Shown in pieces: positions 5,201 to 54,660 of a stretch of 64,000 nucleotides of DNA. Below the pieces are notes generated by a model. That model ran no database searches. It was not told the DNA's origin and worked only from the letters and a program-made list of their open reading frames with translations. Origin of the DNA: Candidatus Poseidoniia archaeon (GTDB lineage: Archaea > Thermoplasmatota > Poseidoniia > MGIII > CG-Epi1); NCBI GenBank assembly GCA_029936395.1, contig JAPYSW010000002.1, positions 3,950 to 67,949 of the forward strand, given 5' to 3'. The stretch's first letter is position 1. Each line of letters starts with the position of its first letter. Position numbers and translations under genes: made by a program.

Positions 5201-5728
5201 ATGTATCGAATACGAGATTACCTAATTTTGATGTTTGCCATATGTCTATTTTCACCTTTAGTTCAAGCTGAAGATAATTTATACCGAATAGACGGTATTC
5301 CGGATAATTTACATTATGATGTTGGTGAATCTTATCTGATAAATATTACAGTAAGTGATCCAGCTTCAGTTTCATATATTATTATTACAATAACCAATGG
5401 GACATTGAGTGCAACAGACGAATTCACTGAATCTAATTTAGAACTCAATTTAACAGACGGTAGTGAAGGCTGGTTTTTCAATTGGCAAGCGCCTGCTGAA
5501 TCTTTTGATTTGGGTGAAGGTAATGCTGTATTAACAATAGATTTCAAGTATCAGAATGGAACTACGTGGGCTTCATTCGATTCAATTTTGAGATCTCCTG
5601 AAGTTGTAGAAGAGAGTGGAGCTGGAGTTCCACAATGGGCGCTTTCTTTAGCTTGGACTGGAGCGAGTGTAACTGTTATTCTAACCGTTCTTGGTGCTTT
5701 AGTTCTCAGACGCGATAGATTAACGTAA
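5201..5728 (+). CDS. Secreted protein with a signal peptide and a C-terminal TM anchor. It is a paralog of the 13452-14147 protein.
   Basis: N-terminal hydrophobic signal ending ...VQAED, four N-x-S/T sequons, and a C-terminal TM followed by RRDR. Shares the motif 'NWQAPAE...G.AV.T..F...NG' with the ORF at 13452-14147. Confidence 0.5.
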   Translation: MYRIRDYLILMFAICLFSPLVQAEDNLYRIDGIPDNLHYDVGESYLINITVSDPASVSYIIITITNGTLSATDEFTESNLELNLTDGSEGWFFNWQAPAESFDLGEGNAVLTIDFKYQNGTTWASFDSILRSPEVVEESGAGVPQWALSLAWTGASVTVILTVLGALVLRRDRLT

Positions 5729-5739
5729 GGTATATATGC
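5723..5739 (+). promoter_or_regulatory. Putative BRE/TATA promoter element of the first pilin gene
   Basis: 'ACGTAAGGTATATATGC' about 45 bp upstream of the ATG. The same 17-mer recurs upstream of the paralog at 6361. Confidence 0.4.
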
Positions 5740-5781
5740 TATACCAGCCGTCTAGAGTTAGACTTAGGTCAGAGAATAAAT

Positions 5782-6288
5782 ATGAATCGCAGAATTATTA
5801 ACAATGATGAGGAAGCTGTATCTCCGGTAATTGCCGTTATTTTAATGGTCGCTATTACTGTAGTAATGGCAGCAGTGTTGTACGCATGGTTAGGCGGAAT
5901 CATTGGTGGTTCTCCCAAAAGCCCACCAACAGGTAGTATGATGGTCTCAAGTGATGGTGCCAGCGATTGGACAGTTACTATTATTAAAATGAATCCTACA
6001 GTTTCCGTTAATTCAGTACATTGGTTTTTACTAGATATGAGTGATATGACAAAAATAGATGGTATGGTTTCAGATATTTATGGTTTTAAGGGTGGCGAGG
6101 GTGAAGCTGTGATTTTCGTTGATAATGATTTTGATGCTAAAGTAAGCCCAGGTGATCACTTCCAAATTTTTGCAGGTGAAGATGGAACTTCATTGGAACA
6201 GTACCCTGATCTTTCAGAGTATTCTTTTCGTATGAAATTCGATCCAACAGGTGACACTATTGGATATGATACAGAATTTGTATCCTAG
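5782..6288 (+). CDS. Archaeal type IV pilin (DUF1628 / class III signal peptide)
   Basis: N-terminus 'MNRRIINNDEEAVSPVIAVILMVAITVVMAAVLY' is the canonical archaeal pilin N-terminal domain. Confidence 0.8.
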   Translation: MNRRIINNDEEAVSPVIAVILMVAITVVMAAVLYAWLGGIIGGSPKSPPTGSMMVSSDGASDWTVTIIKMNPTVSVNSVHWFLLDMSDMTKIDGMVSDIYGFKGGEGEAVIFVDNDFDAKVSPGDHFQIFAGEDGTSLEQYPDLSEYSFRMKFDPTGDTIGYDTEFVS

Positions 6289-6360
6289 ATTACTAAAAAG
6301 ATTTAGCGAAGTAACCGATTGTTTTAGCTTATGCTGTGTTTTTCTTTTATGCCGATTTTG

Positions 6361-6377
6361 ACGTAAGGTATATATGC
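6361..6377 (+). promoter_or_regulatory. Duplicated BRE/TATA promoter element of the second pilin gene
   Basis: Identical 17-mer 'ACGTAAGGTATATATGC', followed by a conserved 'GGTCAGAG' just upstream of the ATG. Confidence 0.4.
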
Positions 6378-6423
6378 AGTCGTAGGATTGCTATATTTCT
6401 GACTTCGGTCAGAGGACATAACA

Positions 6424-6927
6424 ATGAAACGAAGAATAGTAAACGATGAGCAGGCAGTTTCACCTGTAATTGCGGTCATTTTAATGGTAGCTATTACAGT
6501 CGTTCTGGCTGCAGTATTGTACGTTTGGGCTAGCAGTTTTCTTGGTGGTACAACCAAGAACGCACCAACCGGCAGTATGATAGCAAACGAAGATGGAAGG
6601 GGAACTTGGACAATATCTATTGTCAAGCTTAACCCACAAGTCTCCGTAAACTCTGTACACTGGTACTTACTAGATACAGAAGGAAACACAAAGACTGATG
6701 GCTTAGTCTCTGATGTATATGGTTATTACTCTGGACAGGGTAAAGCTGTAGTATTCATAGACAACGACTTCAATGGAAAGTTGAGCCCAGGTGACAAGTT
6801 CGAAGTTCACCCGGCTGAACCAGACTCGGATTTATCAGCAGTTAGTGATGTCACTGACTACTCATTCCGTATGAAGTTCGAGCCTAACGGTGATGTAATC
6901 GGTTACGATATAAGTCTAAAATCATAG
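6424..6927 (+). CDS. Archaeal type IV pilin (DUF1628), a tandem paralog of 5782-6288
   Basis: 'MKRRIVNDEQAVSPVIAVILMVAITVVLAAVLY'. Colinear similarity to the upstream paralog along the whole length. Confidence 0.8.
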   Translation: MKRRIVNDEQAVSPVIAVILMVAITVVLAAVLYVWASSFLGGTTKNAPTGSMIANEDGRGTWTISIVKLNPQVSVNSVHWYLLDTEGNTKTDGLVSDVYGYYSGQGKAVVFIDNDFNGKLSPGDKFEVHPAEPDSDLSAVSDVTDYSFRMKFEPNGDVIGYDISLKS

Positions 6928-7017: not shown

Positions 7018-8202
7018 TTAATCTAACCAGGGAACTCGTTGTATTGGTTGAGCACCTTTAGCTAATCCTTTTTTTATTTCAGCTTTTGGTAGCAATTCTA
7101 ACACTACTTGTGAAATTGTTGCATTACGAGGGGCCTTTCCAGTTTCCAATCGATCTTCATTTAATGATGCTTCAGGATATTTTTTCAGAAAATCCATGGC
7201 GCCATCATCCCATGGTGCTGGGCCTTTATGCGGAATAATTTCAGGTAATTCAATTGATGCAGTTTCAAATATAAGATATCCTTTTTCTTCTAAATTTGCA
7301 TTCCAAGCAATAGGTTCAAAATCGGAAATAGCATTATAGATTTTACGCCCCTGTCTTTGAAGCCATGGCAACGCAGTTTCTTCATTACCTCCAGGATGAG
7401 GGAGTATTACAGTAGTAACAAATCCTTGAAATGGTCTTTTCTTATTCTTTGGGAAAAAGAAGTCTAAAGAGGGTTTAGCAAGAAATGCCTTGGATGCTAA
7501 TACTGCAGATCCGAGCCCTTTAAGTGTTACACCTGCAGCTACATTTCGATTAGAATCAACAGGATCAGCAAGCATAATTGGGGAATTTGGTGCATTAATA
7601 ATTTTGTCTATAATAAGAGGCGGCTTCCAATTAGCAATCTCGTTAACTAATTTTTCGAATCCTCCATATTTGATACATAATATTTCAACTAAATAACCTG
7701 AAAAACCACCGACTGCAGAACTAGCACCATAGGCTCCACATCCCTTCAGAAATTGCTTAGTAAGTCGAATGTCATCTTCCATCCCAGATATGTTTTTCTT
7801 TACCCATTCAGTGTGAAATGGTGTTCTATCTACAGCTGAAAGTGGTTTAGTTGAGTTCTTTATAGAATAGCAAGGAACAACATCTATTCCGATTCCCTTA
7901 ATTTCACCTCGCAGGTATGGATGCTGGGCATAGAGTTCTCTCCCATTTGGTAGAATTTTTTTTGCAATATCTAAACCTTCTTTTTTCAAATCAGCATCTG
8001 TATTAAATTTTAAAAATAGATCAATGTCTGCACCCTTAAGAAAAGTATTTTTCGCAACAGATCCGACTATTAATGAATCAAATTTTTTATCACTCAGATC
8101 ATTAGCTTTATTCATTAATTCAATTGCCAAATCTTCTATTTTCTTAGTTTCTTCTTCACTAGGTTTGATTTGGTCAATAACGGTTTTGAGTAATTGATTC
8201 AC
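7018..8202 (-). CDS. cca: CCA-adding tRNA nucleotidyltransferase (archaeal class I)
   Basis: N-terminal 'GSVAKNTFLKGADIDLFLKF' nucleotidyltransferase motif (GS...DxD). 394 aa. Confidence 0.78.
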   Translation of the reverse strand: MNQLLKTVIDQIKPSEEETKKIEDLAIELMNKANDLSDKKFDSLIVGSVAKNTFLKGADIDLFLKFNTDADLKKEGLDIAKKILPNGRELYAQHPYLRGEIKGIGIDVVPCYSIKNSTKPLSAVDRTPFHTEWVKKNISGMEDDIRLTKQFLKGCGAYGASSAVGGFSGYLVEILCIKYGGFEKLVNEIANWKPPLIIDKIINAPNSPIMLADPVDSNRNVAAGVTLKGLGSAVLASKAFLAKPSLDFFFPKNKKRPFQGFVTTVILPHPGGNEETALPWLQRQGRKIYNAISDFEPIAWNANLEEKGYLIFETASIELPEIIPHKGPAPWDDGAMDFLKKYPEASLNEDRLETGKAPRNATISQVVLELLPKAEIKKGLAKGAQPIQRVPWLD

Positions 8203-8702
8203 TCTTCTTCATTAGGGGGGCTGGATTTACCTTTACTCCAAGCTTTTATTCTTTCTTTTTTAGCTCTCTTTCTTAAGGTCGTAATATCGTCTTTGACAGG
8301 AAGTAATATAGGAATAGTAAATACAATCATTCCTAAAACAAGAGAAAAAAGACCCAATAAAATGTATTTTCTTATTATGATTGTTTCTAAAAAGAGACTG
8401 ATTGAAAGTAAAGCAAATATATTTGAAAACCATATAATTCTTCTATATGATTTTTCACTGAAAAAATATTTTCCAGCTTCATATTCTATATCTACTGAAA
8501 ATTCAGCTTCAGGTATTTCAATTTTATCTAAATTAACTTGAGGTCGTTCTCTATTTCGTTTTCTCAGATAAAGTGTTGCAAATACACCACCTGCAAGAAA
8601 TGCAGCTTGACCAAATCCAGGATCGCCAGCAGTAGTGGCAGCCCAAATAGCATACACAACTGCCAACCAAATAGCTACAAGAATTGAATAGTATAGGTTC
8701 AT
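8199..8702 (-). CDS. Integral membrane protein, about 4 TM helices
   Basis: Hydrophobic segments. Last gene of the minus-strand respiratory operon. Overlaps cca by 4 nt. Confidence 0.4.
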   Translation of the reverse strand: MNLYYSILVAIWLAVVYAIWAATTAGDPGFGQAAFLAGGVFATLYLRKRNRERPQVNLDKIEIPEAEFSVDIEYEAGKYFFSEKSYRRIIWFSNIFALLSISLFLETIIIRKYILLGLFSLVLGMIVFTIPILLPVKDDITTLRKRAKKERIKAWSKGKSSPPNEEE

Positions 8703-8715
8703 TCAATTACTAAGA

Positions 8716-9555
8716 CTAGACTCTAGCTTCCATAGTAATCGCTTCAACAGGACAGGCAAAGGCACAGAGTGTACAGCCCGTACAGGTATCGTCAAGAATG
8801 AGTGCCTTTTTCGATTCAAATTGGGAAGTTCTAGCCTTTAAGTCCCATGAAATCATATCGATTGACGCAAAATTGCAGAAATAAACGCATTGAGTACAAC
8901 CTATACATTTTTCATTATCTACTAAGGCTATGTAATTTTTCCCTCTTGGCAATGCATCTAAAGTCATCTTCCTTAGATTTTTAAACATACTTTTTGCTTT
9001 TTCGATACCAGTTGTTGGTAATTCTTCTTTAGCTAATACATTTTTAGCAGTAGTTAGCCATTTATTTGGTTTCTTGAAAAATAAAGAGGTAGCTTCTGAA
9101 ACAACTTTTGTTTGATTTTCCACAACTGCCTCGGCAGGTTTTTCTTCTTTTTCAATAACTGTATCTGTAGTTCCAGATCCAATATCAGCAGGATCGGTAA
9201 TCAGGATCGCATCTACAGGGCATACTTCTTCGCAAGCTCTACAAACAATACAATCTGGTTCTCGAGCCCCGATTGCTTTCTTGTCAGAAGCAGGATGATT
9301 TGGAGTATCAATCCAATCAAAAACATCGACTGGACAAGCATCAACGCAAGCTCCATCGGCGACACATATATCGAAATCAACGCCAACAACACTGCCCCAA
9401 ATTCCTAGCTTATCAGTTCCTACACCACCATAGGAGTCAGCATCTTTGGCCCAAATTTGAATTGGTTCATCATCTCCATCGTGGGTTGCAACTTTTGCAT
9501 ACGTAGTCATGAAATTCTTGTCGATTTCAGCCACTAATTTTCTTCCTCCAAACAA
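8716..9555 (-). CDS. Polyferredoxin-like iron-sulfur protein (4x [4Fe-4S] motifs)
   Basis: CIVCRACEEVCP, CIGCTQCVYFC, CTGCTLCAFACP and a further C-x-C-x3-CP motif. Confidence 0.7.
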   Translation of the reverse strand: MFGGRKLVAEIDKNFMTTYAKVATHDGDDEPIQIWAKDADSYGGVGTDKLGIWGSVVGVDFDICVADGACVDACPVDVFDWIDTPNHPASDKKAIGAREPDCIVCRACEEVCPVDAILITDPADIGSGTTDTVIEKEEKPAEAVVENQTKVVSEATSLFFKKPNKWLTTAKNVLAKEELPTTGIEKAKSMFKNLRKMTLDALPRGKNYIALVDNEKCIGCTQCVYFCNFASIDMISWDLKARTSQFESKKALILDDTCTGCTLCAFACPVEAITMEARV

Positions 9556-10421
9556 GCGACCAAGAATTGCATTAAATCCATCATTTCATAATCGTGATGA
9601 TGGCCTTCATCTGGATTCATTCTTTCTTCATTTAACATACATTGCATATGCATGTAACATTTAGGACAACCTCCTAACATCAAATCAATACCAGCATCAG
9701 TTCCCTGGTCCAATCTCTTTCGACGGACAGCTTTTGTGGCATCATTACAATACATCATTGAGGAAACACCACAACACAAAGCTCGTTCTTTATTATTCTC
9801 TAATTCTACCATTGTAGCTCCGTCAACAAGTTGAATTAAATCTCTCGGGGCTTCATATTCGCCCATCATTCTTCCCAGACGGCAAGGGTCATGATATGCT
9901 ACAGTTACACCTTCAGGCGCCTTAAATTTCAATCCTCGACCCTGTAGAGTTTGTGTTATATGTTCAACTTTAATTCCTAAAGTACCTGGAAGATCATAAT
10001 CTACTGCGAAAGTACGATAACATTCTGCACATGAACAAGTTATAATTTTAATCCCAGATTCCTTTAATCGCCTCATATTATGTTCTTTAAGTGCATCAAA
10101 TACTTCCAACTGACCTTGCCATAATTGGTCATGTCCTGAACATTTGAATATATTCATGTCTAGTATTAGTGGGTCAATATCAGCATAGTTCAATAATTTA
10201 ATCGACGCTGCTGCAATCGAAGCATGATCTGCATCTCCCTTATTTAGATGAGTAAATTTAACTTCGACATCCATAAAATCTACACATCCTGGAAAATATC
10301 CATATTCATGTGGCCTTTCAGGCTTCCAAGATTCTTTTTCTTCGTTCATAGCGTCTTCTACGATAAGTCTCTCAAAAAGAGGATGCGGTATTGTTCTTGA
10401 ATATGGCTTTGTTCGATTCAT
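9534..10421 (-). CDS. HdrB/GlpC/SdhE-like protein with two CCG cysteine-rich domains
   Basis: 'ITCSCAECY' and 'LCCGVS...GGCPKCYMHMQC' are CCG-domain signatures. There is no N-terminal ferredoxin domain, so it is HdrB-type rather than HdrD-type. Confidence 0.7.
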   Translation of the reverse strand: MNRTKPYSRTIPHPLFERLIVEDAMNEEKESWKPERPHEYGYFPGCVDFMDVEVKFTHLNKGDADHASIAAASIKLLNYADIDPLILDMNIFKCSGHDQLWQGQLEVFDALKEHNMRRLKESGIKIITCSCAECYRTFAVDYDLPGTLGIKVEHITQTLQGRGLKFKAPEGVTVAYHDPCRLGRMMGEYEAPRDLIQLVDGATMVELENNKERALCCGVSSMMYCNDATKAVRRKRLDQGTDAGIDLMLGGCPKCYMHMQCMLNEERMNPDEGHHHDYEMMDLMQFLVACLEEEN

Positions 10422-11473
10422 AAGCTTACTCCCATTGTGGTTAATGCTCTCTGCTCTAATACATAATCAATATATTCGATATTTTGTGGACAAACTGCAG
10501 TACACATACCACAGGTAATACATGACCACATAGCGACACCATCGTGTTCATTTTGGAATGTATTAAATATAATATTTAGTTCATTTTCTCCTTCCATATC
10601 TCTAACTGGACAGATATCATCACAGAGCCCACATTGATAACAACGATTTAGTTTAAATTCATAAATGCGTTGCATTCTTCGGTCCGTTATTCCATCAGTA
10701 TAAAGATCGAATCTTTCTTCATCAGTTAATGGTTTTGCACCTTCCGACCTTCTTCGATCCAAGAATATATATGTAATCAATGCACAACCGATAGGCCCCC
10801 AAAGAGTTAGTTGTGATAAAACATCAGTATTGACTTGTGGATAATACATTGCAATATTGGCGTTAACTGAGAAAACAGACAGCATTATGACTAATGCAAT
10901 TCCATAAACTCCGATTGCAGCTCTTACAGGATCTTCGATAGGTCGTCTTTCGTGACCTCTATTGATAACATCTCCGTATTGAGGGTCAATTAATGCACCA
11001 ATAGCTCTGTCAAGGAAAGGAACTGCAACTACAAGTCCAATAATCATACCTTGTACCAAGGTACCCCATACTTTTGCAGTCATTAGGAAAAGATGAATAT
11101 CGTTTAATCCTAAGAATGGTATACTGGATAATGGAATTAATATTTGGATATCCCAAGCCACTTTCAAACATCCGAAAGCCCATAGTAAATACCAATCAGG
11201 TAATGGAGGTGGAAAAGCAGTACCTGCCGTTGGATCTGCAGCTTCATGTAATGGAGGTGGGATAAATGCAGACAAATAGAAGAATAAAGCAATGATATAC
11301 AAACTTAAAACAGAATCTCTAGTTACTTCATGTGGATAAAGTGGTTCTCCTTTAACCATATCAGCTTCAAGAACGGAATGCTCTTCTCTATGCTCCAATT
11401 TATTTATTGTATCAAGAGACTGTTGCTCTTCTTGATGTTCATAAATCATTTCTACAGCATCATCTTCATTCAT
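10418..11473 (-). CDS. Fusion protein: cytochrome b C-terminal domain (subunit IV / PetD-like) plus a 2x[4Fe-4S] ferredoxin domain
   Basis: 'PPPLPDWYLLWAFG' corresponds to the cytochrome b PEWY motif within about 3 TM helices. The C-terminus carries 'CYQCGLCDDICPV' and 'CITCGMCTAVCPQ'. Confidence 0.62.
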   Translation of the reverse strand: MNEDDAVEMIYEHQEEQQSLDTINKLEHREEHSVLEADMVKGEPLYPHEVTRDSVLSLYIIALFFYLSAFIPPPLHEAADPTAGTAFPPPLPDWYLLWAFGCLKVAWDIQILIPLSSIPFLGLNDIHLFLMTAKVWGTLVQGMIIGLVVAVPFLDRAIGALIDPQYGDVINRGHERRPIEDPVRAAIGVYGIALVIMLSVFSVNANIAMYYPQVNTDVLSQLTLWGPIGCALITYIFLDRRRSEGAKPLTDEERFDLYTDGITDRRMQRIYEFKLNRCYQCGLCDDICPVRDMEGENELNIIFNTFQNEHDGVAMWSCITCGMCTAVCPQNIEYIDYVLEQRALTTMGVSL

Positions 11474-12438
11474 TAATGCGGTTCAGCCTCCCCTTGTATC
11501 CAAACAAGTGCCATATGGATAATAATCAAAATAGTGCCTATTAGGGGAAGAACAAAAATATGCAACCAATACATCCTAGTTACAGTATCTCCAGTTAATT
11601 GAGTCCCTCCAAATACAATTTGAGCCATTAATGGCCCCATTGCAGGTATCGACGTTGCCATTTCTAAACCAATAGACCCAGCTGCATAACCAAGAGAATC
11701 CCATGGCAGTAGATAGCCCGTATATCCAAAGAAAATAGTAACCATCAATAGGAGAGATCCCAACATCCAATTTACTTCACGTGGATTTCGATAAGCACCA
11801 ACAAAGTAAACTCTCATCATATGAAGAAATACTGAAGCAACCATGAAGTGAGCTGACCAATGGTGGACTGCCCGAATAATGTAGCCAAATGTTACCTGCG
11901 TCATAATTAATTCCATAGATTGGTATGCACCAGAAGTAGAATGGCCATTTTCATCCAATATGAATTCTCCATCAGGGACATAATAAAATCCTAGATAAAT
12001 GCCAGTAATTGTAAGAATAATATATGCGAAAAAAGACAATCCACCTAATGAGTAAAAAGGATACCAATACCATACTGATTTTATATTGTATCTTTCAGTA
12101 TGAGATTGAGGAATAGTTCGACCCGTAGCAGGTAAAAGAGTGTAAACTACTGAATAGTATTCTCTTTTTGCTAGAGAAACGTAGCGATGTAGTGCAAATC
12201 TTTCATCAATCCATGCCCATGTATCAAATATTATTCTAGGAAGTAAGCCCGTGAAGTAAAGATAACCAACACCAAACACAGCTCCAGCCATTGATAAGAA
12301 TATTAGTGGGAATGTATATTTTCTCATTAATTCTTCTAAAATTGGAGTTTCAGCATTAACAGGTAATGCAAAAAGGGCTAAACATCCAATAACTATGGTA
12401 ATAATTTTATTAATTTTCATGTTTATCCTTGTCCACAA
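11473..12438 (-). CDS. Cytochrome b (b6-like N-terminal domain, heme-ligating His pairs)
   Basis: 'HHWSAHFMVASVFLHMMRVYF' and 'WLHIFVLPLIGTILIIIHMALV' give bis-His ligation for two hemes. Confidence 0.8.
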   Translation of the reverse strand: MWTRINMKINKIITIVIGCLALFALPVNAETPILEELMRKYTFPLIFLSMAGAVFGVGYLYFTGLLPRIIFDTWAWIDERFALHRYVSLAKREYYSVVYTLLPATGRTIPQSHTERYNIKSVWYWYPFYSLGGLSFFAYIILTITGIYLGFYYVPDGEFILDENGHSTSGAYQSMELIMTQVTFGYIIRAVHHWSAHFMVASVFLHMMRVYFVGAYRNPREVNWMLGSLLLMVTIFFGYTGYLLPWDSLGYAAGSIGLEMATSIPAMGPLMAQIVFGGTQLTGDTVTRMYWLHIFVLPLIGTILIIIHMALVWIQGEAEPH

Positions 12439-13097
12439 TACTTTAGCCAGTCTAAATGATTAGTTAGGCCGATTAATCCTCCATCTTTTTCAGCAATAGG
12501 AACTACTGGAAGCCCATAAGGTGCAGGTCCCTCTAACAATTTAGCTGCTTTAACTTCACGCCCTTGTTCATCTATGTTTGTAATAACATCTAATGGATCA
12601 AACAAAGATAAGTGACAAGGGCATAAAAACATATTTTCATAGTCCTTTCCCGATATTGTACTCTTTCCTTGAGGTGTGAAAACAGGTTTACAGCATAAAT
12701 GTGGACATTTATATGTATGATAGGCCATCATCATTGCATTACCTTCATCTACACTTATTCCTAATTCTTCCATGCCACTTTCAGCAGGTACTTTTATAAG
12801 TGCTAATTGAATTTCACAACTTCCTAATTCTTCTTCTAATTCTTTTGGAGCCCAATTAACAATAGCTACATCCCAAAGATCAAAATCTTCTTTTATTGCT
12901 ATTTTCCCACCTTTATCCTCATACCATTTTCCTTCTTCTTTTTTGTAAGTAAGTGTTTCATGGGCATCATCAGAATTACATCTAGTAATTGGCGGCGGAA
13001 GTAATGTTTTCAAAGCAGGAACCGTTAATGCACCAGTCATTCCTGCGCCAGCTAAACCAATAGCACCTTGTAAAAATCCTCTACGTGTAATCTTCAT
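12423..13097 (-). CDS. Rieske [2Fe-2S] protein with a Tat signal
   Basis: 'MKITRRGFLQGAIGLAGAG' is a twin-Arg signal. 'CPHLCC' and 'CPCHLSLF' are the Rieske boxes. Confidence 0.8.
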   Translation of the reverse strand: MKITRRGFLQGAIGLAGAGMTGALTVPALKTLLPPPITRCNSDDAHETLTYKKEEGKWYEDKGGKIAIKEDFDLWDVAIVNWAPKELEEELGSCEIQLALIKVPAESGMEELGISVDEGNAMMMAYHTYKCPHLCCKPVFTPQGKSTISGKDYENMFLCPCHLSLFDPLDVITNIDEQGREVKAAKLLEGPAPYGLPVVPIAEKDGGLIGLTNHLDWLKYCGQG

Positions 13098-13099
13098 AT

Positions 13100-13471
13100 T
13101 TAACGTTCAAGTTTTGTAATAACTTTCCTCCTTCGTTTTTTAGCTTCGAGTACATCTGGCATGAATGATCTTCTATAGAAATCAATCATAAGTCCTAGAA
13201 TTAGAAATGCCATGGCTATTGTAAATGATAAAAATTGTTGATCCCAATTTTCTAGAATTCCATAAATAAATAATGAATCATACATAAGTTCAAGTAACAA
13301 TAGTATCAAAACTATTGCAAAAATTTCAAGTTGTTCTTTACCTGGAATATTTCGCAATTCTTTTCCAAGATCCTCATCCTTATAAGTGCCTAATATTTTT
13401 TGTGCATCTTCAGTGGTAAGTTCACCTTTGGCGACTTTTTCTAAAATTTCATTAACCTCGGTAATGCGCAC
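13100..13471 (-). CDS. Small membrane protein (2 TM)
   Basis: Hydrophobic core. Overlaps the upstream gene. Confidence 0.35.
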   Translation of the reverse strand: MRITEVNEILEKVAKGELTTEDAQKILGTYKDEDLGKELRNIPGKEQLEIFAIVLILLLLELMYDSLFIYGILENWDQQFLSFTIAMAFLILGLMIDFYRRSFMPDVLEAKKRRRKVITKLER

Positions 13472-14147
13472 TCCCTCCTCTAATTACGATGTAAGCAACA
13501 AATATTGATAAGAAAACAACAGCTAGTCCAATAAGTCCAATCCAATACTGCATTAGTTCTACACCAAGTTCATGAATGGAAATTTCTTCTGATGTTAATT
13601 GAGGTGTTCCCAAAGATATTGCTGTAAAGTAGGACCATTGATCACCAGTAGTTCCTACTCCATTTACCACATTAAAATACATGGTGAAAACAGCATCACC
13701 GGTGCCTTCTGCAGGGGCAGTCCATTGGAATGTCCAATTACGAGCATTATTACTATTTGTATTATGGGAAATATACGAACCATCATCCCCAATCCAATAA
13801 TTTTCATTACTCTGGTATGCACCCTCACTAACTTCACTTAGAAATCCACCATAGCGAACGGCTCCTTCTTCAGAAATTACGTTAGTATCATTTATTTGGA
13901 GAGAAATATTGTATGTTTGTTCAGGGACGTATTTTTGAGGTATACCTTCTAGATTGTACATCCCTTCATTTAGTTGGACATCAGCGTGACAAGAACAACC
14001 ATGTGCAATAGCATCAGCAGCCCATTCTTCACCTGCTCCTTCTTGGGCACCACCTGCAGGATATCCATCAACACTTTTACCAGCTATCAGTGCTGTTAGA
14101 ATCAGCAATGCAAACAGACCGTGATTCATGGTGTTACGTATGTCCAT
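13452..14147 (-). CDS. Exported protein with a C-terminal TM anchor. First gene of the Rieske/cytochrome b operon.
   Basis: Signal peptide, 'HGCSCHAD' Cys/His cluster, 'NWTFQWTAPAEGTGDAVFTMYFNVVNG' motif shared with the 5201 ORF, and a C-terminal TM. Confidence 0.45.
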   Translation of the reverse strand: MDIRNTMNHGLFALLILTALIAGKSVDGYPAGGAQEGAGEEWAADAIAHGCSCHADVQLNEGMYNLEGIPQKYVPEQTYNISLQINDTNVISEEGAVRYGGFLSEVSEGAYQSNENYWIGDDGSYISHNTNSNNARNWTFQWTAPAEGTGDAVFTMYFNVVNGVGTTGDQWSYFTAISLGTPQLTSEEISIHELGVELMQYWIGLIGLAVVFLSIFVAYIVIRGGSAHYRG

Positions 14148-14266
14148 ACTACGCCCTCAGAATAGATGGTCTGCGAGGGAAGTCTCTGCTATATAAAAAT
14201 ATGCGGTAAGAAAGCCTTTTTTTTGTCAAGCATATCTGCTTAATACGTTACTCCATTTGATAGAAT

Positions 14267-49374: not shown

Positions 49375-50505
49375 ATGGAAATGTTAGTAATTTACATCAT
49401 AATTAGTTTGCTTATCGGGTTTACTTTAGGTTATTTCATTGCTAATAATAATTCACAGAAATTACTAGATTTACATGAAAAAACCTCAACTCGAGATAAA
49501 GAGTTTGAAAATGCTTTCAAAGCAATAGCATCAGATATAACTAAATCAAATACGGATGAATTTATTAAGCAAGCAAATGATAAATTTCAAACATTGAGTA
49601 AGGAATCAGATACAAATCTTGAAAATAAGAAAAAGCTAATAGATCAAAACTTAGAAGAGATGTCTAAGAAATTAGCCTCTATTGAAAAAGAGTCGACTAA
49701 ATTAAATGCTAATTTAGAGGATTCAAAAATGGAGACTCAAAATTTAAGAGACACTACTACAAAATTAAGAGAAATTCTGTCCTCATCACAGAAAAGAGGT
49801 CAATGGGGTGAAAGAATGGTTGAAGATATTCTTAATTTCATTGGATTAATAGAGGGTGTTAATTATACAAAACAAGATACAGTAGAGTCAGGTGAAAGAC
49901 CAGATTTTACTTTCAAACTTCCTAAAGAAAAGGTTATCAATATGGATGTAAAATTTCCACTCTCACATTATGAAAATTATATTGAAACCGATGATGAATT
50001 CGTTATGAAAAATGAAAAAAAAGAATTCTTAAAATCTGTTCGTAATCATATCAAGGCTATTTCTAATAGAAATTATATTGATACCTCATCCGGTACTCTA
50101 GATTATGTATTGATGTTTATTCCGAATGAATCTATTTATTCATTTATTAATCAAGAAGATAGTTCAATTATAGATTATGCACTAACTAATAAAGTTCTAA
50201 TTTGCTCACCATTGACGCTTTATGCAATTTTATCTCTTATCAATCAAGCAACTAGGAATTTTGCGGTGGAAGAGAAAGCTTTAGATGTAATGAAGCTATT
50301 AAGTAAGTTCAAAGAACAATGGGAGAAATATTCGGGAACTATTGATAAAATGGGTCGCAGTATTGAAACGGTGCAGAAGGATTATTTGCAATTAGTCACC
50401 ACACGTAAAAATCAACTTGAAAAGCCTTTAAATGAAATTGAAAGTTTAACGGGACAATTAGAAAATACGTCTATTGATAAGTTAGATGGCCAACAAAAGT
50501 TTTAA
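49375..50505 (+). CDS. RmuC-family DNA recombination protein
   Basis: N-terminal TM, coiled coil, C-terminal 'DYVLMFIPNESIY' nuclease-like core. Confidence 0.5.
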   Translation: MEMLVIYIIISLLIGFTLGYFIANNNSQKLLDLHEKTSTRDKEFENAFKAIASDITKSNTDEFIKQANDKFQTLSKESDTNLENKKKLIDQNLEEMSKKLASIEKESTKLNANLEDSKMETQNLRDTTTKLREILSSSQKRGQWGERMVEDILNFIGLIEGVNYTKQDTVESGERPDFTFKLPKEKVINMDVKFPLSHYENYIETDDEFVMKNEKKEFLKSVRNHIKAISNRNYIDTSSGTLDYVLMFIPNESIYSFINQEDSSIIDYALTNKVLICSPLTLYAILSLINQATRNFAVEEKALDVMKLLSKFKEQWEKYSGTIDKMGRSIETVQKDYLQLVTTRKNQLEKPLNEIESLTGQLENTSIDKLDGQQKF

Positions 50506-51914
50506 AGTTCTTTCATTGAAGAAATTAACTCAGTCATCATCTTTTTTCCATCGCCAAAGAGCATCATAGTGTTATCTTCATAGAATAAATCATTATCAAC
50601 GCCAGCATAACCAACAGACAATGATCTCTTTACCATTACAACAACCCTAGCTTTATCGACATTTATGATGGGCATTCCGGCTAAAGGTCCTTTATCACTT
50701 CTAGCTGCGGGATTTACGGTATCATTTGCTCCAACAACTAAGGCCACATCACATTCCCCGATTTCCGAATTAATATCATCCATTTCAATTAGTTTTTCAT
50801 ATGGTACATTTGCTTCAGCCAATAATACATTCATATGCCCTGGCATTCTTCCAGCTACTGGATGAATTCCATATTTGACTTCACATCCATTTGCTTCTAA
50901 AATATCTGCAAATTCACGGACTTGGTGTTGACATTGAGATACGGCCATTCCATATCCTGGAACAATTACACATTTCGAGATTCCATCACAAATCATGGCT
51001 ACTTCATCCGGATCAGATCCTATTTTTGTTCTTGTTACTTGTTGCTTATCGGAACCACCAAAGGATTTGAATAATACATCAATGAGTTGTCGATTCATTG
51101 CTTTACACATAATATTTGTTAGAATAAGCCCTGCAGCTCCAACCATAGAACCCGCGATTATCAAAACGTTGTTTCCAATAATAAATCCAGTAAATGCAGC
51201 TGCAATTCCTGATAAGGAGTTCAATAAGCTAACTACAACAGGCATGTCTGCCCCTCCAATTGGAAGCACAAAGAGAATTCCAAGAATACAGGACAGTACG
51301 ATAATCCCTATCACGTAATCTTGATTTCCAGGCTCTTCTATACTCATGTAGATTAACCCAACAATTCCAATCAAAAATAGTCCTTTGACATAGTTCAGCC
51401 ATACAGGTCCCCAAGTAGGCGTTCGGTACCATTTTCCAAAGATTTCAACTCCACCTTTCAATTTCATCATTGCAAGTAAACTTCCAGTTAGAGTCATCCA
51501 ACCAACTAATGTAGAAAGGCCGATTGCAATCCAAGCAACATATAAATCTAAATTTTCAGGGAGATCATTTTGGTTTATTCTTCTAAAAACTTCAGAGGCA
51601 GCAACAAGTGCACTTGCAGCCCCTCCGAATCCATTAAACAATGCAACCATTTCTGGTATTCCGGTCATTTGCACACGGGCCGCCATAACATAACCAATTA
51701 GTCCACCTATGGCTAGTCCAGCTCCAATCAGTATAAAATTATCAATTACTTTAAATTCCATTTGGGCAATAGTGACGATTATAGCGACTAACATCCCCAT
51801 TGCACCATATAAATTACCAGTTGGTGCAGTACGAGGATGACCTAATTTTTTCAATCCTAATATGAATAGGATTGAGGCAATTAAATATCCAATATCCCAG
51901 ATTGCTTTATCCAT
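50502..51914 (-). CDS. pntB: NAD(P) transhydrogenase subunit beta
   Basis: Membrane domain plus NADP(H)-binding dIII. Confidence 0.9.
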   Translation of the reverse strand: MDKAIWDIGYLIASILFILGLKKLGHPRTAPTGNLYGAMGMLVAIIVTIAQMEFKVIDNFILIGAGLAIGGLIGYVMAARVQMTGIPEMVALFNGFGGAASALVAASEVFRRINQNDLPENLDLYVAWIAIGLSTLVGWMTLTGSLLAMMKLKGGVEIFGKWYRTPTWGPVWLNYVKGLFLIGIVGLIYMSIEEPGNQDYVIGIIVLSCILGILFVLPIGGADMPVVVSLLNSLSGIAAAFTGFIIGNNVLIIAGSMVGAAGLILTNIMCKAMNRQLIDVLFKSFGGSDKQQVTRTKIGSDPDEVAMICDGISKCVIVPGYGMAVSQCQHQVREFADILEANGCEVKYGIHPVAGRMPGHMNVLLAEANVPYEKLIEMDDINSEIGECDVALVVGANDTVNPAARSDKGPLAGMPIINVDKARVVVMVKRSLSVGYAGVDNDLFYEDNTMMLFGDGKKMMTELISSMKEL

Positions 51915-52231
51915 TACTTTCTACCCCTTTTACCAGCAATCATATTCAGCATTCTGTTAGTTACAGCAAAGCCCCCAACAACATTGATAGTTGCCAAAAC
52001 TAATGCCGCAAAAGCCAACCAAGCAGCAAATCCAGGATTTGTATATGGCGTATCTTGTAATAAAATCAAAGCACCCACAACAGTAATTCCTGAAATTGCA
52101 TTAGCTCCAGACATTAATGGCGTGTGTAGCGTCGGTGGAACTTTTGTAATAAGTTCAAATCCTAAAAAAATAGCTAGCACAAATACCGTAATTAATACAA
52201 TAAGTATGCTACCTCCCGTGATGGGCTCCAT
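51914..52231 (-). CDS. pntAB: NAD(P) transhydrogenase alpha subunit, part 2 (membrane)
   Basis: 105 aa, 3 TM, 'AISGITVVGA'. Confidence 0.75.
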   Translation of the reverse strand: MEPITGGSILIVLITVFVLAIFLGFELITKVPPTLHTPLMSGANAISGITVVGALILLQDTPYTNPGFAAWLAFAALVLATINVVGGFAVTNRMLNMIAGKRGRK

Positions 52232-53415
52232 TACTTCATTGCCTCCATTAGTTTGGTATGATTTTTATGAATGTTCCCACCTTCAGCAATTAGAATTCCA
52301 CCATATCCTGCTGAAATACCGCCATCATCTCCTGTCAAAACTTGTTCTTCTTGGTTTATGACTAGATTTCCTTCTTTAACTAATACAGTTACAAAGCTAG
52401 TGACATTATTTGAGTAGAGCATTGAAGCAGTATTTGGAATCGTTCTACAAAGTATAGGTATTCCTATGATTTTAACACCATCTTTCTCCACAATCTCACC
52501 TTCTTTGCTGCCAATAATATTCCCGCCAGTATCAGAGTTCATATCTACGATTACAGATCCTTCTTTCATTTCTTTAGTCATTTTTTCGTTCATCTTGTTA
52601 CCAAAAAATAATTTGGGAGCATCTGCGCCAAATAATCTTGCAGTGGTTATTACGACATCTGCATCTTTTACGGCATTCATCAAAGCATTATCAAAAGCTT
52701 CCTGAAGTCCTTTATCTGTAAACAAGGACGCATGTCCACTTGAACTTTCAGCGTCTTTCCATCCAGGTACATCAATGAATTTTGCACCTAAACTTTCAGT
52801 ATCTTGTTTGGCTGCTAATCTAACATCAATAGCTTGAACTATTGCACCTAATCTTTTAGCTGTAGCAATTGCTTGTAGTCCAGCTACAGCAGCTCCCTGA
52901 ATTATAAATTTTGCAGGTCTAACAGTTCCTGCAGAAGTCATCATCATTGGGACCATCTTTGCAATATGCTGTGAACCCATCAAGGCTGCTCTGTATCCAG
53001 ATAGATTATCTTGACTTGAATTAACATCCATAGACTGCCCCTTGGATAGTCTTCTAGGAATTACTTCTAAGGAAAGTAAAGTTATTTCGGATTCTATAAT
53101 CTCCTTTATCTGTTTTAAATTTCGGAAAGGGTCGGCCATGCATGCTAACATTTGCCCTTTTTTCATCATTTCTAAATTAGGTATATTAATAGATGCAATT
53201 AATTCAGCAGACATTACTTCGTTTAAATTTCCAATTTGTGCACCCTTATCAGTATATTCTGAATCAGAATATTTTGATAATTCCCCCGCACCTTCTTGAA
53301 TAATAACCTCAAATCCTATTTTTTGTAATTTAGGAATAGAAACAGGTACAATTGCTACACGTGTTTCATTCTCAACAGTTTCTTTTGGGACTCCTATACG
53401 CATTGTTTTCTCCAA
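52231..53415 (-). CDS. pntAA: NAD(P) transhydrogenase alpha subunit, part 1 (dI, AlaDH-like)
   Basis: AlaDH/PNT N- and C-terminal domains. Confidence 0.9.
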   Translation of the reverse strand: MEKTMRIGVPKETVENETRVAIVPVSIPKLQKIGFEVIIQEGAGELSKYSDSEYTDKGAQIGNLNEVMSAELIASINIPNLEMMKKGQMLACMADPFRNLKQIKEIIESEITLLSLEVIPRRLSKGQSMDVNSSQDNLSGYRAALMGSQHIAKMVPMMMTSAGTVRPAKFIIQGAAVAGLQAIATAKRLGAIVQAIDVRLAAKQDTESLGAKFIDVPGWKDAESSSGHASLFTDKGLQEAFDNALMNAVKDADVVITTARLFGADAPKLFFGNKMNEKMTKEMKEGSVIVDMNSDTGGNIIGSKEGEIVEKDGVKIIGIPILCRTIPNTASMLYSNNVTSFVTVLVKEGNLVINQEEQVLTGDDGGISAGYGGILIAEGGNIHKNHTKLMEAMK

Positions 53416-53481: not shown

Positions 53482-54660
53482 CTACTTTCCGATTTCACGA
53501 GCTATAACTAATCGCTGTACTTCTTGAGTTCCTTCGTAAATCTGAGTTATTTTTGCATCTCTGAAAAATCGTTCAACAGGGAATTCAGTAGTATATCCAT
53601 ATCCGCCAAGAACTTGAACCGCTTTTTCGGAGACCCACATTGCAGTATCACCCGCATTCAGTTTAGCAAATGACGCTTCTAGTGTGTGCCTTGCTGCACC
53701 ATTTTCATAATGCTGTTGCTTTGCCCATGCAGCTTTGTAAACCTGTAGTCTTGCAGCATCTATTCGCAGAGCCATGTCAGCTAAGTAGTTGCTAATCGTT
53801 TGATGGGCTGCGATTGGTTTTCCAAAAGTTTCACGTTCTTTTGAATATTTGAGTGCAGCTTCGTATGCTCCTTGAGCTATCCCTAAAGCTTGGGCAGCAA
53901 TACCTATTCTTGAATTGTCTAAAGCATTCATTGCAATAGCAAATCCTTTTCCAACTTCTCCTAAAATATTTTCTTTTGGTACTTTACAATTCTCTAGAAT
54001 TAAAGTACAAGTATCACTGGATCGTATCCCTAACTTATCTTCTTTTTTACCTATTTTAAAGCCCTCAAAGTTCTTTTCAATAATAAAACATGTCACTCCA
54101 CCATGTTTTTTAACGCCATAATCGGGATGATTAGTTACTTTAGCAAAGAGAACAAAAATATCTGCCGCAGTTCCATTAGTAACCCACATTTTTTCACCAT
54201 TTAGTACAAAGCAGTCATCTTCTTCCGTAGCTCGGGCAACCATTGCGGCAGCATCTGTGCCAGATCCAGCTTCACTCAATGAATAAGCACCTAAGTGTTC
54301 ACCAGATGCCAATTTAGGTAAATATTTTTGTTTTTGTTCTTCATTTCCATTAAGTGTAATAGTCATTGAACAAAGTCCAACATGAACGGCAACCATTACT
54401 CCTAATGAAGGATCTACTCTAGATAATTCTTCAATAACAATGGCTTCTGAAATATCATCTAATTTCTGACCTCCATATTTTTCAGGAATAGTCATACCAG
54501 CTACACCTAATTCTGCAAACTGTTTAAATTCATCAATAGGAGGGATTTGTTCTTTATCTCTTTTATGGCACGAGGGACCGGCTACGGTTTCAGCAAAATT
54601 TCTAACCATGTCTCTTATCAAGGTCTGGTCATCAGTTTCAGAAAAATCCACTTTAACCAC
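53482..54660 (-). CDS. Acyl-CoA dehydrogenase
   Basis: 'YSLSEAGSGTDAAAM' and 'QVLGGYGYTTEFPVERFFRDAKI' ACAD signatures. Confidence 0.9.
   Translation of the reverse strand: MVKVDFSETDDQTLIRDMVRNFAETVAGPSCHKRDKEQIPPIDEFKQFAELGVAGMTIPEKYGGQKLDDISEAIVIEELSRVDPSLGVMVAVHVGLCSMTITLNGNEEQKQKYLPKLASGEHLGAYSLSEAGSGTDAAAMVARATEEDDCFVLNGEKMWVTNGTAADIFVLFAKVTNHPDYGVKKHGGVTCFIIEKNFEGFKIGKKEDKLGIRSSDTCTLILENCKVPKENILGEVGKGFAIAMNALDNSRIGIAAQALGIAQGAYEAALKYSKERETFGKPIAAHQTISNYLADMALRIDAARLQVYKAAWAKQQHYENGAARHTLEASFAKLNAGDTAMWVSEKAVQVLGGYGYTTEFPVERFFRDAKITQIYEGTQEVQRLVIAREIGK

Follow-up and report, generated by a model that had tools for sequence, protein, structure and literature searches.

Why should the genes of a Rieske/cytochrome b complex be followed, in a single operon, by genes for proteins resembling parts of heterodisulfide reductase (Hdr) and for a polyferredoxin? 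The question is raised by eight genes (g1 to g8) of an epipelagic Candidatus Poseidoniia archaeon of Marine Group III (MGIII), which lie in a stretch of 64,000 nucleotides of contig JAPYSW010000002.1 (hereafter the window, i.e., the whole stretch of DNA that was analysed). An earlier, sequence-only reading had described them as a chimeric and undescribed respiratory module that could couple quinol oxidation to disulfide or ferredoxin chemistry. The chimeric architecture is real: a b6-type Rieske/cytochrome b core, an HdrC/HdrB-like module and a polyferredoxin are encoded side by side. We suggest, with a probability of about 0.5, that the operon encodes the complex III of this archaeon and that this complex carries a cytoplasmic iron-sulfur wire through which electrons enter from ferredoxin or from electron transfer flavoprotein (ETF).

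The eight open reading frames (ORFs) fill positions 8199-14147 on the minus strand with an intergenic space close to zero, and all of them were found where the sequence-only reading had placed them (Table 1). The first two genes overlap by 20 nt, and gaps of 2 nt separate g2 from g3 and g3 from g4 (the latter provided that g4 starts at ATG 12420, the start called in its relatives). The junctions are TAATG between g4 and g5, ATGA between g5 and g6, and TAGTG between g6 and g7; a gap of 13 nt precedes g8, which meets the next gene, cca, at GTGA. The eight genes are translationally coupled. A GAGGG motif stands 8 nt before the start codon of g1, with a candidate TATA box further upstream. Searches of Pfam, NCBIfam and the PDB returned the domain content that had been described, while hydropathy agrees with the description of g8.

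Table 1. Genes of the operon and other features of the window.
Feature	Position	Strand	Length	Description
TATA box (candidate, archaeal)	14190..14197	-		TTTATATA; 43-50 nt 5' of the g1 ATG
g1	13452..14147	-	231 aa	Signal peptide, Reeler/choice-of-anchor-V beta-sandwich, C-terminal transmembrane (TM) anchor
g2	13100..13471	-	123 aa	SHOCT-like N-terminus and DUF7318 two-TM hairpin (PF24002, 3e-12; hydropathy)
g3	12423..13097	-	224 aa	Rieske [2Fe-2S] protein exported by twin-arginine translocation (Tat); boxes CPHLCC and CPCHLS
g4	11473..12438	-	321 aa (315 aa from the probable ATG 12420)	Cytochrome b6-type four-helix dihaem core
g5	10418..11473	-	351 aa	Subunit IV (C-terminal half of cytochrome b, with a fourth helix) and HdrC-like 2x[4Fe-4S] domain
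g6	9534..10421	-	295 aa	Double-CCG protein of HdrB/HdrD/EtfD type (PF02754, 5e-18)
g7	8716..9555	-	279 aa (272 aa from GTG 9534)	Polyferredoxin with four Fer4 stretches (3e-20)
g8	8199..8702	-	167 aa	About four TM segments (hydropathy and sequence reading)
cca	7018-8202			CCA-adding enzyme
Pilin-like gene	6424-6927			Class III signal-peptide (type IV pilin-like) protein
Pilin-like gene	5782-6288			Class III signal-peptide (type IV pilin-like) protein
ORF	5201-5728			Just upstream of the pilin-like pair
PntB gene	50502-51914			PntB
PntA-like gene	52231-53415			AlaDh/PNT protein
Acyl-CoA dehydrogenase gene	53482-54660			Acyl-CoA dehydrogenase

The core would be a b6-type menaquinol oxidase made of the Rieske protein, a dihaem cytochrome b6 and a subunit IV with a PDWY Qo site. 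The Rieske protein g3 has both cluster-binding boxes and a Tat signal (TRRGFL; TIGR01409, 21.3 bits for a cut-off of 16.7). It matches TIGR01416 (7e-9), short of the full-length curated cut-offs, and the Rieske structure 7yr9_A (2.5e-4) over an alignment that spans the two boxes. The g4 protein matches PF00033 (1e-35), PF13631 (1e-37) and the cytochrome b6 model NF002990 (7e-53; 179.7 bits, below the cut-off of 325), and its four haem-binding histidines can be read in RAVHHW..FLHMMR and WLHIF..IIIHMAL. It has YSLGG in place of CxGG, the motif by which haem ci/cn binding is defined (PMC5600118), and it therefore lacks the cysteine that binds this haem in cytochrome b6f. An N-terminal extension of about 110 residues (window 12100-12438) adds a signal-peptide-like segment (ALPVNA|ETP) and one extra TM helix to g4.

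The membrane half of g5 matches the QcrB model NF050120 (residues 231-387; 8e-7), and its relatives match PF00032. The PDWY motif, at residues 92-95, is invariant across the aligned relatives and belongs to the class of Qo motifs linked to menaquinol (PMC4122944). Sequence and hydropathy give g5 four helices and a basic stretch, DRRRSEGAK, after helix H. In haloarchaeal homologs the second half of cytochrome b also bears an eighth helix (Baymann et al. 2012, PMC3509893), and such a helix in g5 would bring its C-terminus, i.e., the iron-sulfur domain, to the cytoplasmic side. These features, together with the lack of signal peptides in g6 and g7, indicate that the iron-sulfur module is probably cytoplasmic. 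The likeness to the haloarchaeal halocyanin-Rieske/cytochrome b cluster extends to the Tat-exported Rieske protein, the split of cytochrome b into b6 and subunit IV (4+4 helices), the PDWY motif, the lack of a cytochrome c1/f gene and a DUF7318 gene just 5' of the Rieske gene. The haloarchaeal cluster differs in having halocyanin in the slot of g1 and in lacking the ferredoxin domain of subunit IV, the CCG protein and the polyferredoxin.

The C-terminal domain of g5 contains two CX2CX2CX3CP motifs (CYQCGLCDDICP and CITCGMCTAVCP), the pair of cubane-cluster motifs characteristic of HdrD and HdrBC, with all eight cysteines invariant in the alignment; it matches a Fer4 dicluster family (Fer4_8, 4e-10) and HdrC models (1e-7). 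Of the two CCG motifs of g6, the first (KCSGHD, with CAEC) is degenerate and the second (HDPC, LCCG, CPKC) complete, whereas HdrD and HdrBC have two complete motifs. This is the pattern of EtfD, with a first motif devoid of its second cysteine and an intact second one. EtfD of M. smegmatis is also the best match of g6 in the PDB (9ojn_A, 1.5e-14, compared with 4e-5 for HdrB), and KCSGHD aligns to its TCTGD such that a serine occupies the position of the EtfD threonine. Cryo-electron microscopy of EtfD has traced electrons from ETF to a linear [3Fe-4S] cluster, a noncubane [4Fe-4S] cluster, two cubanes, haem b and menaquinone (PMC13083937). There, the first cluster is linear because a threonine replaces the second cysteine of the first CCG motif, and the noncubane cluster is non-catalytic; in HdrB the noncubane cluster depends on the same cysteine for the coordination of its fourth iron (PMC13083937). 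The authors interpreted the loss of the cysteine and the shielding of the clusters as an adaptation to aerobic life (PMC13083937). Since EtfD is the best solved relative and g6 has a serine at the position in question, its module is, judging from these motifs, much more likely to be an electron wire in the archaeon of the window than a site where disulfides are cleaved.

The disulfide chemistry that the sequence-only reading had offered thus loses ground to the role of a wire. A genuine quinol:disulfide oxidoreductase, i.e., an analogue of HdrDE on a Rieske/cytochrome b anchor that reduces a cytoplasmic disulfide at its CCG clusters, would agree with the complete second motif and with the nearest homologs of g6 outside Thermoplasmatota, which are HdrD-annotated proteins of Methanosarcinales and anaerobic methanotrophic archaea (42-49% identity). 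The best NCBIfam match of g6 is TfrB (87 bits), yet none of the curated models for Hdr, TfrB, DsrK or LdhH comes near its cut-off. The first motif itself varies within MGIII: counting the window, 29 of 35 loci lack the second cysteine (28 CSG and 1 CTG) and six have CCG, as do most of the distant relatives, and such intact motifs would favour disulfide reduction. The loss in most loci speaks against disulfide reduction, given the linear, non-catalytic cluster that accompanies it in EtfD, and no coenzyme M/coenzyme B or Mcr context was seen among the window ORFs scanned. We consider this explanation very unlikely. The loci with KCCGHD form a clade inside MGIII (L030-L034 and L040), and the alternation of CCG with CSG or CTG is a natural experiment on the importance of the fourth iron of the cluster.

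The resemblance to the enzymes of methanogens is one of parts. HdrDE and HdrBC also combine an HdrC-like dicluster and HdrB-like CCG domains with a membrane b-type cytochrome. HdrE is a NarI-type cytochrome b that functions without a Rieske protein, whereas the partner here is b6/subunit IV, and there is no HdrA-like gene in the MGIII operon or its flanks. The QmoC, DsrMK, HmeCD and TmcBC complexes of sulfate reducers and Archaeoglobus similarly place HdrC- and HdrD-like modules on a menaquinone-linked membrane cytochrome b, again of the NarI type, and are devoid of Rieske protein, Qo site and Q cycle. A further difference is that both CCG motifs of the methanogen enzymes are complete and catalytic (PMC13083937).

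We searched the ORFs of 82 loci with the eight proteins of the window. Among species representatives of GTDB, g5 is found at 98% identity (JAAZXG010000012) and 95% (MGIII-CG-Epi1-LRMED-002), and about 35 further genomes of Marine Group III/Poseidoniia encode it at 61-88%. The order g1-g8 is kept in every sufficiently long MGIII locus, down to the deep-branching CG-Bathy1 (61% identity in g5) and including a 343-kb contig of the Joint Genome Institute (JGI), which bears out the conservation that the sequence-only reading had proposed to look for: in all the MGIII loci recovered, the genes are inherited together in the same order. This recurrence of gene order and domain content is far beyond chance. 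The most conserved of the eight proteins is g6, with 96, 78 and 81% identity to its orthologs in L002, L030 and L037, compared with 89, 74 and 72% for cytochrome b6. An exhaustive HMMER search with g5 delimits a narrow family of 13 representatives (E <=1e-30), and the core alone (g1, g2, Rieske, b6 and subunit IV), without the iron-sulfur additions, occurs beyond MGIII, both elsewhere in Thermoplasmatota and in Halobacteria such as the cultured Halospeciosus flavus.

A few loci have labels that deserve comment. Two loci labelled Thalassarchaeaceae (L032 and L035) have g5 identities of 69% and 78%, inside the range of those labelled MGIII. Two others come from metagenome-assembled genomes (MAGs) labelled Nitrosomonadaceae (L010, CAXGWP010000033; 87% identity in g5; ORFs recovered for g1-g6) and Chloroflexota (L027, NZTZ01000011; 81%; g2, g3 and g8 only), and are probably mis-binned archaeal contigs.

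Gene fusions link the wire to the core. In five relatives (P0121, P0128, P0135, P0138 and P0139), Pfam finds Cytochrom_B_C, a Fer4 dicluster and two CCG domains in one polypeptide, and such fused subunit IV-Fer4-CCG genes directly follow the Rieske and b6 genes in the Thermoplasmata MAGs L043-L049 and in L077. These fusions, the start/stop overlaps and the invariant synteny show that the CCG protein works with subunit IV. CCG proteins are also subunits of dehydrogenases of the SdhE, GlpC, LutA and GlcF types, and one could ask if g6 and g7 are mere neighbours that serve such an enzyme (e.g., a type E SdhE). This would be in line with NCBIfam matches that include TfrB and fragments of LdhH, but such a role sits badly with the ATGA and TAGTG overlaps in the invariant MGIII arrangement, and no flavoprotein subunit gene is present in the operon or its flanks. 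As the fusions contradict an ordinary SdhE/GlpC with its SDH partners encoded at another site, which the sequence-only reading had named among the results that would undo its proposal, we regard this explanation as extremely unlikely. From its sequence context, g6 is best described as a subunit of the complex and not as a stray SdhE/GlpC.

In the polyferredoxin g7, a charged linker some 85 residues long separates an N-terminal 7Fe ferredoxin core from a 2x[4Fe-4S] domain at the C-terminus. Residues 42-121 match the zinc-containing 7Fe ferredoxin of Sulfolobus (PDB 1xer_A, 9e-28), and the core has the expected CxxDxxCxxxCP and CxxCxxCxxxCP motifs (CVADGACVDACP and CIVCRACEEVCP). The histidine of GIHG in 1xer, which we take to be a zinc-ligand position, is a tryptophan in g7 (GIWG), so that the His/Asp zinc ligands of the N-terminal extension are not all kept; the score against NF041165 is low (61 bits for a cut-off of 280). 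Residues 204-277 match Fer4 families and proteins of the NuoI/RnfB type. The 7Fe ferredoxins of Sulfolobus and Thermoplasma are the physiological partners of 2-oxoacid:ferredoxin oxidoreductases. In each lineage examined, the HdrD-like module is followed by a gene of the ferredoxin type, for a polyferredoxin in L044, for a ferredoxin of 136 aa in L066 and for a protein with Fer4 and MvhD domains in L048 and L049. In ten MGIII loci (L007-L009, L017, L020, L023-L026 and L029) the g7 orthologs are longer, with 328-339 residues instead of about 280, and match g7 more weakly (1e-67 to 1e-71 instead of about 1e-160), suggesting that the linker or one of the domains differs among MGIII clades.

An identity of g7 with RnfB was considered and rejected: only generic Fer4 families match, the protein has no TM segment and no rnf genes are nearby. 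Against the RnfB model TIGR01944 it reaches 55 bits (cut-off 68.7), over the C-terminal dicluster only. It is probably what annotation pipelines call "RnfB", and a protein of this type may account for the orphan RnfB reported for Marine Group II (MGII; Tully et al. 2019).

The proposed route of the electrons would then be as follows. The cubanes of g5 and the double-CCG protein g6 would form an HdrD/EtfD-like wire ending beside haem bH, and g7 would lengthen it, with its 7Fe ferredoxin domain held on a long flexible linker. Reduced ferredoxin from 2-oxoacid:ferredoxin oxidoreductases, and possibly ETF, would be the donors; electrons would pass from g7 to g6, to the clusters of g5 and on to haem bH, so that quinone becomes reduced at Qi. 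Oxidation of the quinol at Qo would then proceed via the Rieske protein in the usual way, with g1 as the probable outer electron acceptor. An input at this point of the chain was suggested independently for Ca. Angelarchaeales, with complex III as an entry point for ferredoxin (Diamond et al. 2022, PMC9038741). It would also suit the sister group MGII, predicted to be obligately aerobic degraders of proteins and fatty acids with an unexplained orphan RnfB (Tully 2019, PMC6336850), and we count the acyl-CoA dehydrogenase gene of the window as part of this context.

Several observations weigh against such an input. Some concern g6: the first CCG motif is intact in six MGIII loci and in most of the distant relatives; the His583 that ligates cluster D2 in EtfD is absent and replaced by Glu125 (within CAEC), a glutamate across the family; and the nearest homologs outside Thermoplasmatota head HdrC-HdrB-HdrA-MvhD clusters in Methanoperedens and Methanosarcinales, so that a true disulfide-reductase ancestry is likely. 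Others concern the route itself. The docking of the wire near haem bH is conjectural, and the single-chain AlphaFold2 (AF2) model of g5 is unusable, with a mean confidence (pLDDT) of 40.9. The direction of flow, which we presume to be inward, is not readable from sequence. Among the ORFs examined, none beside the operon encodes EtfAB, a 2-oxoacid:ferredoxin oxidoreductase or another ferredoxin, and the larger window ORFs scanned include no gene for ETF, 2-oxoacid:ferredoxin oxidoreductase, a terminal oxidase or a copper protein. Finally, less energy is conserved when ferredoxin feeds Qi than with a ferredoxin:quinone oxidoreductase of the complex I type.

The donor could also be ETF alone, reduced by acyl-CoA dehydrogenases, such that the wire would act as an ETF:menaquinone oxidoreductase built on complex III. 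Among solved structures, the closest is that of the mycobacterial EtfD (Rv0338c/MSMEG homolog; 9ojn; Courbon et al. 2026, PMC13083937), which shares with the MGIII module two cubanes, two CCG domains, a complete second motif and a C[S/T]G signature in the first (CTG there, CSG in g6). It too is a cytoplasmic wire that leads to a b haem and menaquinone in an aerobe. The acyl-CoA dehydrogenase gene in the window and the degradation of fatty acids and proteins by the MGII relatives (PMC6336850) are in keeping with a role of this kind. However, EtfD has its own anchor, with five TM segments and a single haem, in place of subunit IV of a Rieske/cytochrome b complex; it has no Rieske protein, Qo site or polyferredoxin partner, and its His583 is not conserved in g6. 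The operon supplies a ferredoxin-type partner of its own in every lineage, and etfAB was found neither among the window ORFs scanned nor beside the operon. An exclusive role for ETF therefore seems quite unlikely to us.

The same architecture would fit flow in the opposite direction, the chief alternative to the input proposed here. In such an electron output (quinone-based bifurcation), the low-potential electron from Qo would pass via haems bL and bH and the wire to ferredoxin or another cytoplasmic acceptor, while the other electron would go through the Rieske protein to oxygen and the membrane potential would help the export step. From haem bH, however, an electron has to climb roughly 200 mV to reach a 7Fe ferredoxin. 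The MGII relatives, as predicted aerobic heterotrophs, should moreover already make reduced ferredoxin in their catabolism (PMC6336850); the EtfD-like, non-catalytic first motif is neutral on direction. Output has precedents among bacteria, since it was proposed for the Rieske/cytochrome b complexes of anammox bacteria with NAD(P) oxidoreductase subunits (Dibrova et al. 2017, PMC5600118; PMC12954380). In these, a bc-type cytochrome b also carries a cytoplasmic iron-sulfur oxidoreductase module, but this module is an NAD(P)-binding flavoprotein, and the complexes have multihaem c partners. Fusions of bacterial cytochrome b to Fer4/MvhD or flavin domains also point this way (Kao & Hunte 2014, PMC4122944); the PDWF-FeS fusions differ from the MGIII complex by their Fer4+MvhD module, their multihaem c partners and the lack of a Rieske protein. 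In L077 and L048/L049, the gene of the fused protein is itself followed by genes for bifurcation partners of the HdrA or MvhD type. On balance, we hold output to be unlikely.

In the distant archaeal MAG of L077 (7080-13154), the subunit IV-HdrD fusion is followed by an HdrC-like, an HdrB-like and a 1010-aa tandem HdrA-like gene. The order HdrD-like/HdrC/HdrB/HdrA/MvhD recurs without cytochrome b in L084 and L085 (the latter from a Methanosarcinales archaeon), MAGs which encode the HdrD-like homologs of g6 of the Methanoperedens/Methanosarcinales type. The three loci suggest a link, in anaerobes, between flavin-based bifurcation complexes and the Rieske/cytochrome b anchor. In L048 (9431-11221 and 13966-16104) and L049 (5903-7462), a Fer4+MvhD (FlpD) protein is encoded downstream of the fused subunit IV-HdrD gene. 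A few genes further, L048 encodes a protein with LUD, Fer4 and CCG domains (LutB/LdhH-like; scanned in this locus only), and L049 has a g6-like ORF at the corresponding place.

If electrons do enter or leave through the wire, where does the Rieske protein send its own? The gene at the head of the operon, g1, probably encodes the acceptor, by analogy with the halocyanin, plastocyanin or cytochrome c1/f that takes this slot elsewhere; its position, held by cupredoxin-like proteins in other clusters, is the reason for this assignment. The protein matches choice-of-anchor V (67.8 bits) and Reeler (22.3 bits) domains. Its homologs in Thermoplasmatota and Halobacteria have invariant C53-H54, H128, R136, W142-T-x-P145 and D169-x-W171; within the MGIII motif GCSCH the first cysteine varies and only the C-H pair is invariant. 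AF2 (pLDDT 70.6) models a beta-sandwich and, after it, a TM helix, with low confidence in the Cys-His region. Cytochrome f was tried as an identity for g1 and was not assigned: the hhalign profile comparison was not significant, the PDB profile search recovered the Reeler domain alone (E 0.018), and Foldseek ranked a Reeler domain first without listing cytochrome f. We thus class g1 with the Reeler-type proteins and assign it a candidate site for haem or copper. No CXXCH motif, the mark of a c-type cytochrome as third subunit, is present in window ORFs of at least 150 aa, and no WWD motif of cytochrome c maturation in the window or the loci compared with it; at the scale of a genome these absences carry no information.

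The slot of g1 is not always filled by the same protein. In Halospeciosus flavus (L072:4715-5758), a halocyanin/plastocyanin-like gene stands there, upstream of the genes for DUF7318, Rieske, b6 and subunit IV, and in Angelarchaeales the Rieske gene is preceded by a plastocyanin-like gene (Diamond et al. 2022, PMC9038741). The alternation of halocyanin with Reeler-type g1 looks as if the presumed electron acceptor had been exchanged for a non-homologous protein. The bc complexes of haloarchaea include haem-stained subunits for which no CXXCH gene exists and a non-standard haem linkage was predicted, a missing third subunit known as the "haloarchaea paradox" (Kletzin et al. 2015). The g1 protein is a candidate for this non-standard haem subunit, yet the cultured haloarchaeon that we examined has halocyanin.

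In a bolder reading, the complex would be a three-terminal, quinone-based machine that bifurcates or confurcates electrons between menaquinol, a high-potential acceptor in the periplasm and cytoplasmic ferredoxin. We find this clearly unlikely. Were it true, aerobic respiration could drive the reduction of ferredoxin, or ferredoxin would be obligatorily co-oxidised with quinol; g1 would be a hitherto unrecognised redox protein, with either a single Cys-His haem and a topology like that of cytochrome f or a new copper site, and archaeal b6-type complexes would have in it their "missing" third subunit.

Two small proteins complete the operon. The g2 gene is directly 5' of the Rieske gene in the loci of MGIII, other Thermoplasmatota and Halobacteria, and by this recurrence its product appears to be a conserved small subunit of the archaeal Rieske/cytochrome b cluster; a literature search for "DUF7318" returned no mention. 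The g8 protein matches no Pfam or NCBIfam family and is specific to MGIII, following g7 in MGIII loci only.

The flanks show further regularities. The gene for the CCA-adding enzyme begins within the stop codon of g8, and this position is kept in the one relative examined (the 343-kb contig L002 and the identical L003); the overlap and the kept position suggest that this tRNA-maturation gene is co-transcribed with the respiratory operon. Positions 5201-6927 hold two tandem pilin-like genes and, upstream of them, an ORF whose counterpart in relatives is a 175-aa ORF at the same relative position, with very weak similarity to g1 (E 1e-4 to 1e-7). A gene for a PilB-type ATPase is found in the syntenic flank of relatives (L002). 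Far from the operon, the genes for the transhydrogenase PntB and the PntA-like protein adjoin the acyl-CoA dehydrogenase gene.

How new is the operon? To call it undescribed was too strong. The complex III-like locus of Ca. Angelarchaeales, also predicted aerobic Thermoplasmatota, has hdrD-like and rnfB-like genes adjacent to those of cytochrome b and Rieske, with a plastocyanin-like protein upstream instead of g1 (PMC9038741); it is a putative counterpart of the MGIII operon. The paper gives these genes two sentences and does not go into their motifs, fusions or topology (Diamond et al. 2022, PMC9038741). In MGII, both an orphan RnfB and an "MGII specific complex III" had been noted (Tully 2019, PMC6336850), and the bacterial fusions of cytochrome b with Fer4/MvhD or flavin domains had been described without a Rieske protein (Kao & Hunte 2014, PMC4122944). 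Our literature search found no paper analysing the MGIII operon, the subunit IV-HdrD fusions, the EtfD-like motif or the g1 and DUF7318 subunits. The operon is thus real, conserved and uncharacterised, and a relative of it was noticed in passing in a sister lineage.

The MGII and MGIII archaea are abundant heterotrophs of the ocean, whose respiratory chain has so far been described by no more than a "lineage-specific complex III" and an unexplained orphan "RnfB". The operon is evidence that the complex III of MGIII itself includes the RnfB-like polyferredoxin and the HdrD/EtfD-like protein as subunits. The natural fusions of these parts offer a clear structural target, and the Reeler-type subunit g1 is a testable candidate for the missing electron acceptor of archaeal b6-type complexes, which makes the operon of interest for bioenergetics as well as for marine microbiology. 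If the polyferredoxin and the HdrD/EtfD-like protein are indeed such subunits, the complex would provide a direct route between low-potential carriers of the cytoplasm and the Q cycle. Archaeal respiration would then have its counterpart both of the long-debated path from ferredoxin to b6f in photosynthetic cyclic electron flow and of the Rieske/cytochrome b complexes with an NAD(P) link that were proposed for anammox bacteria.

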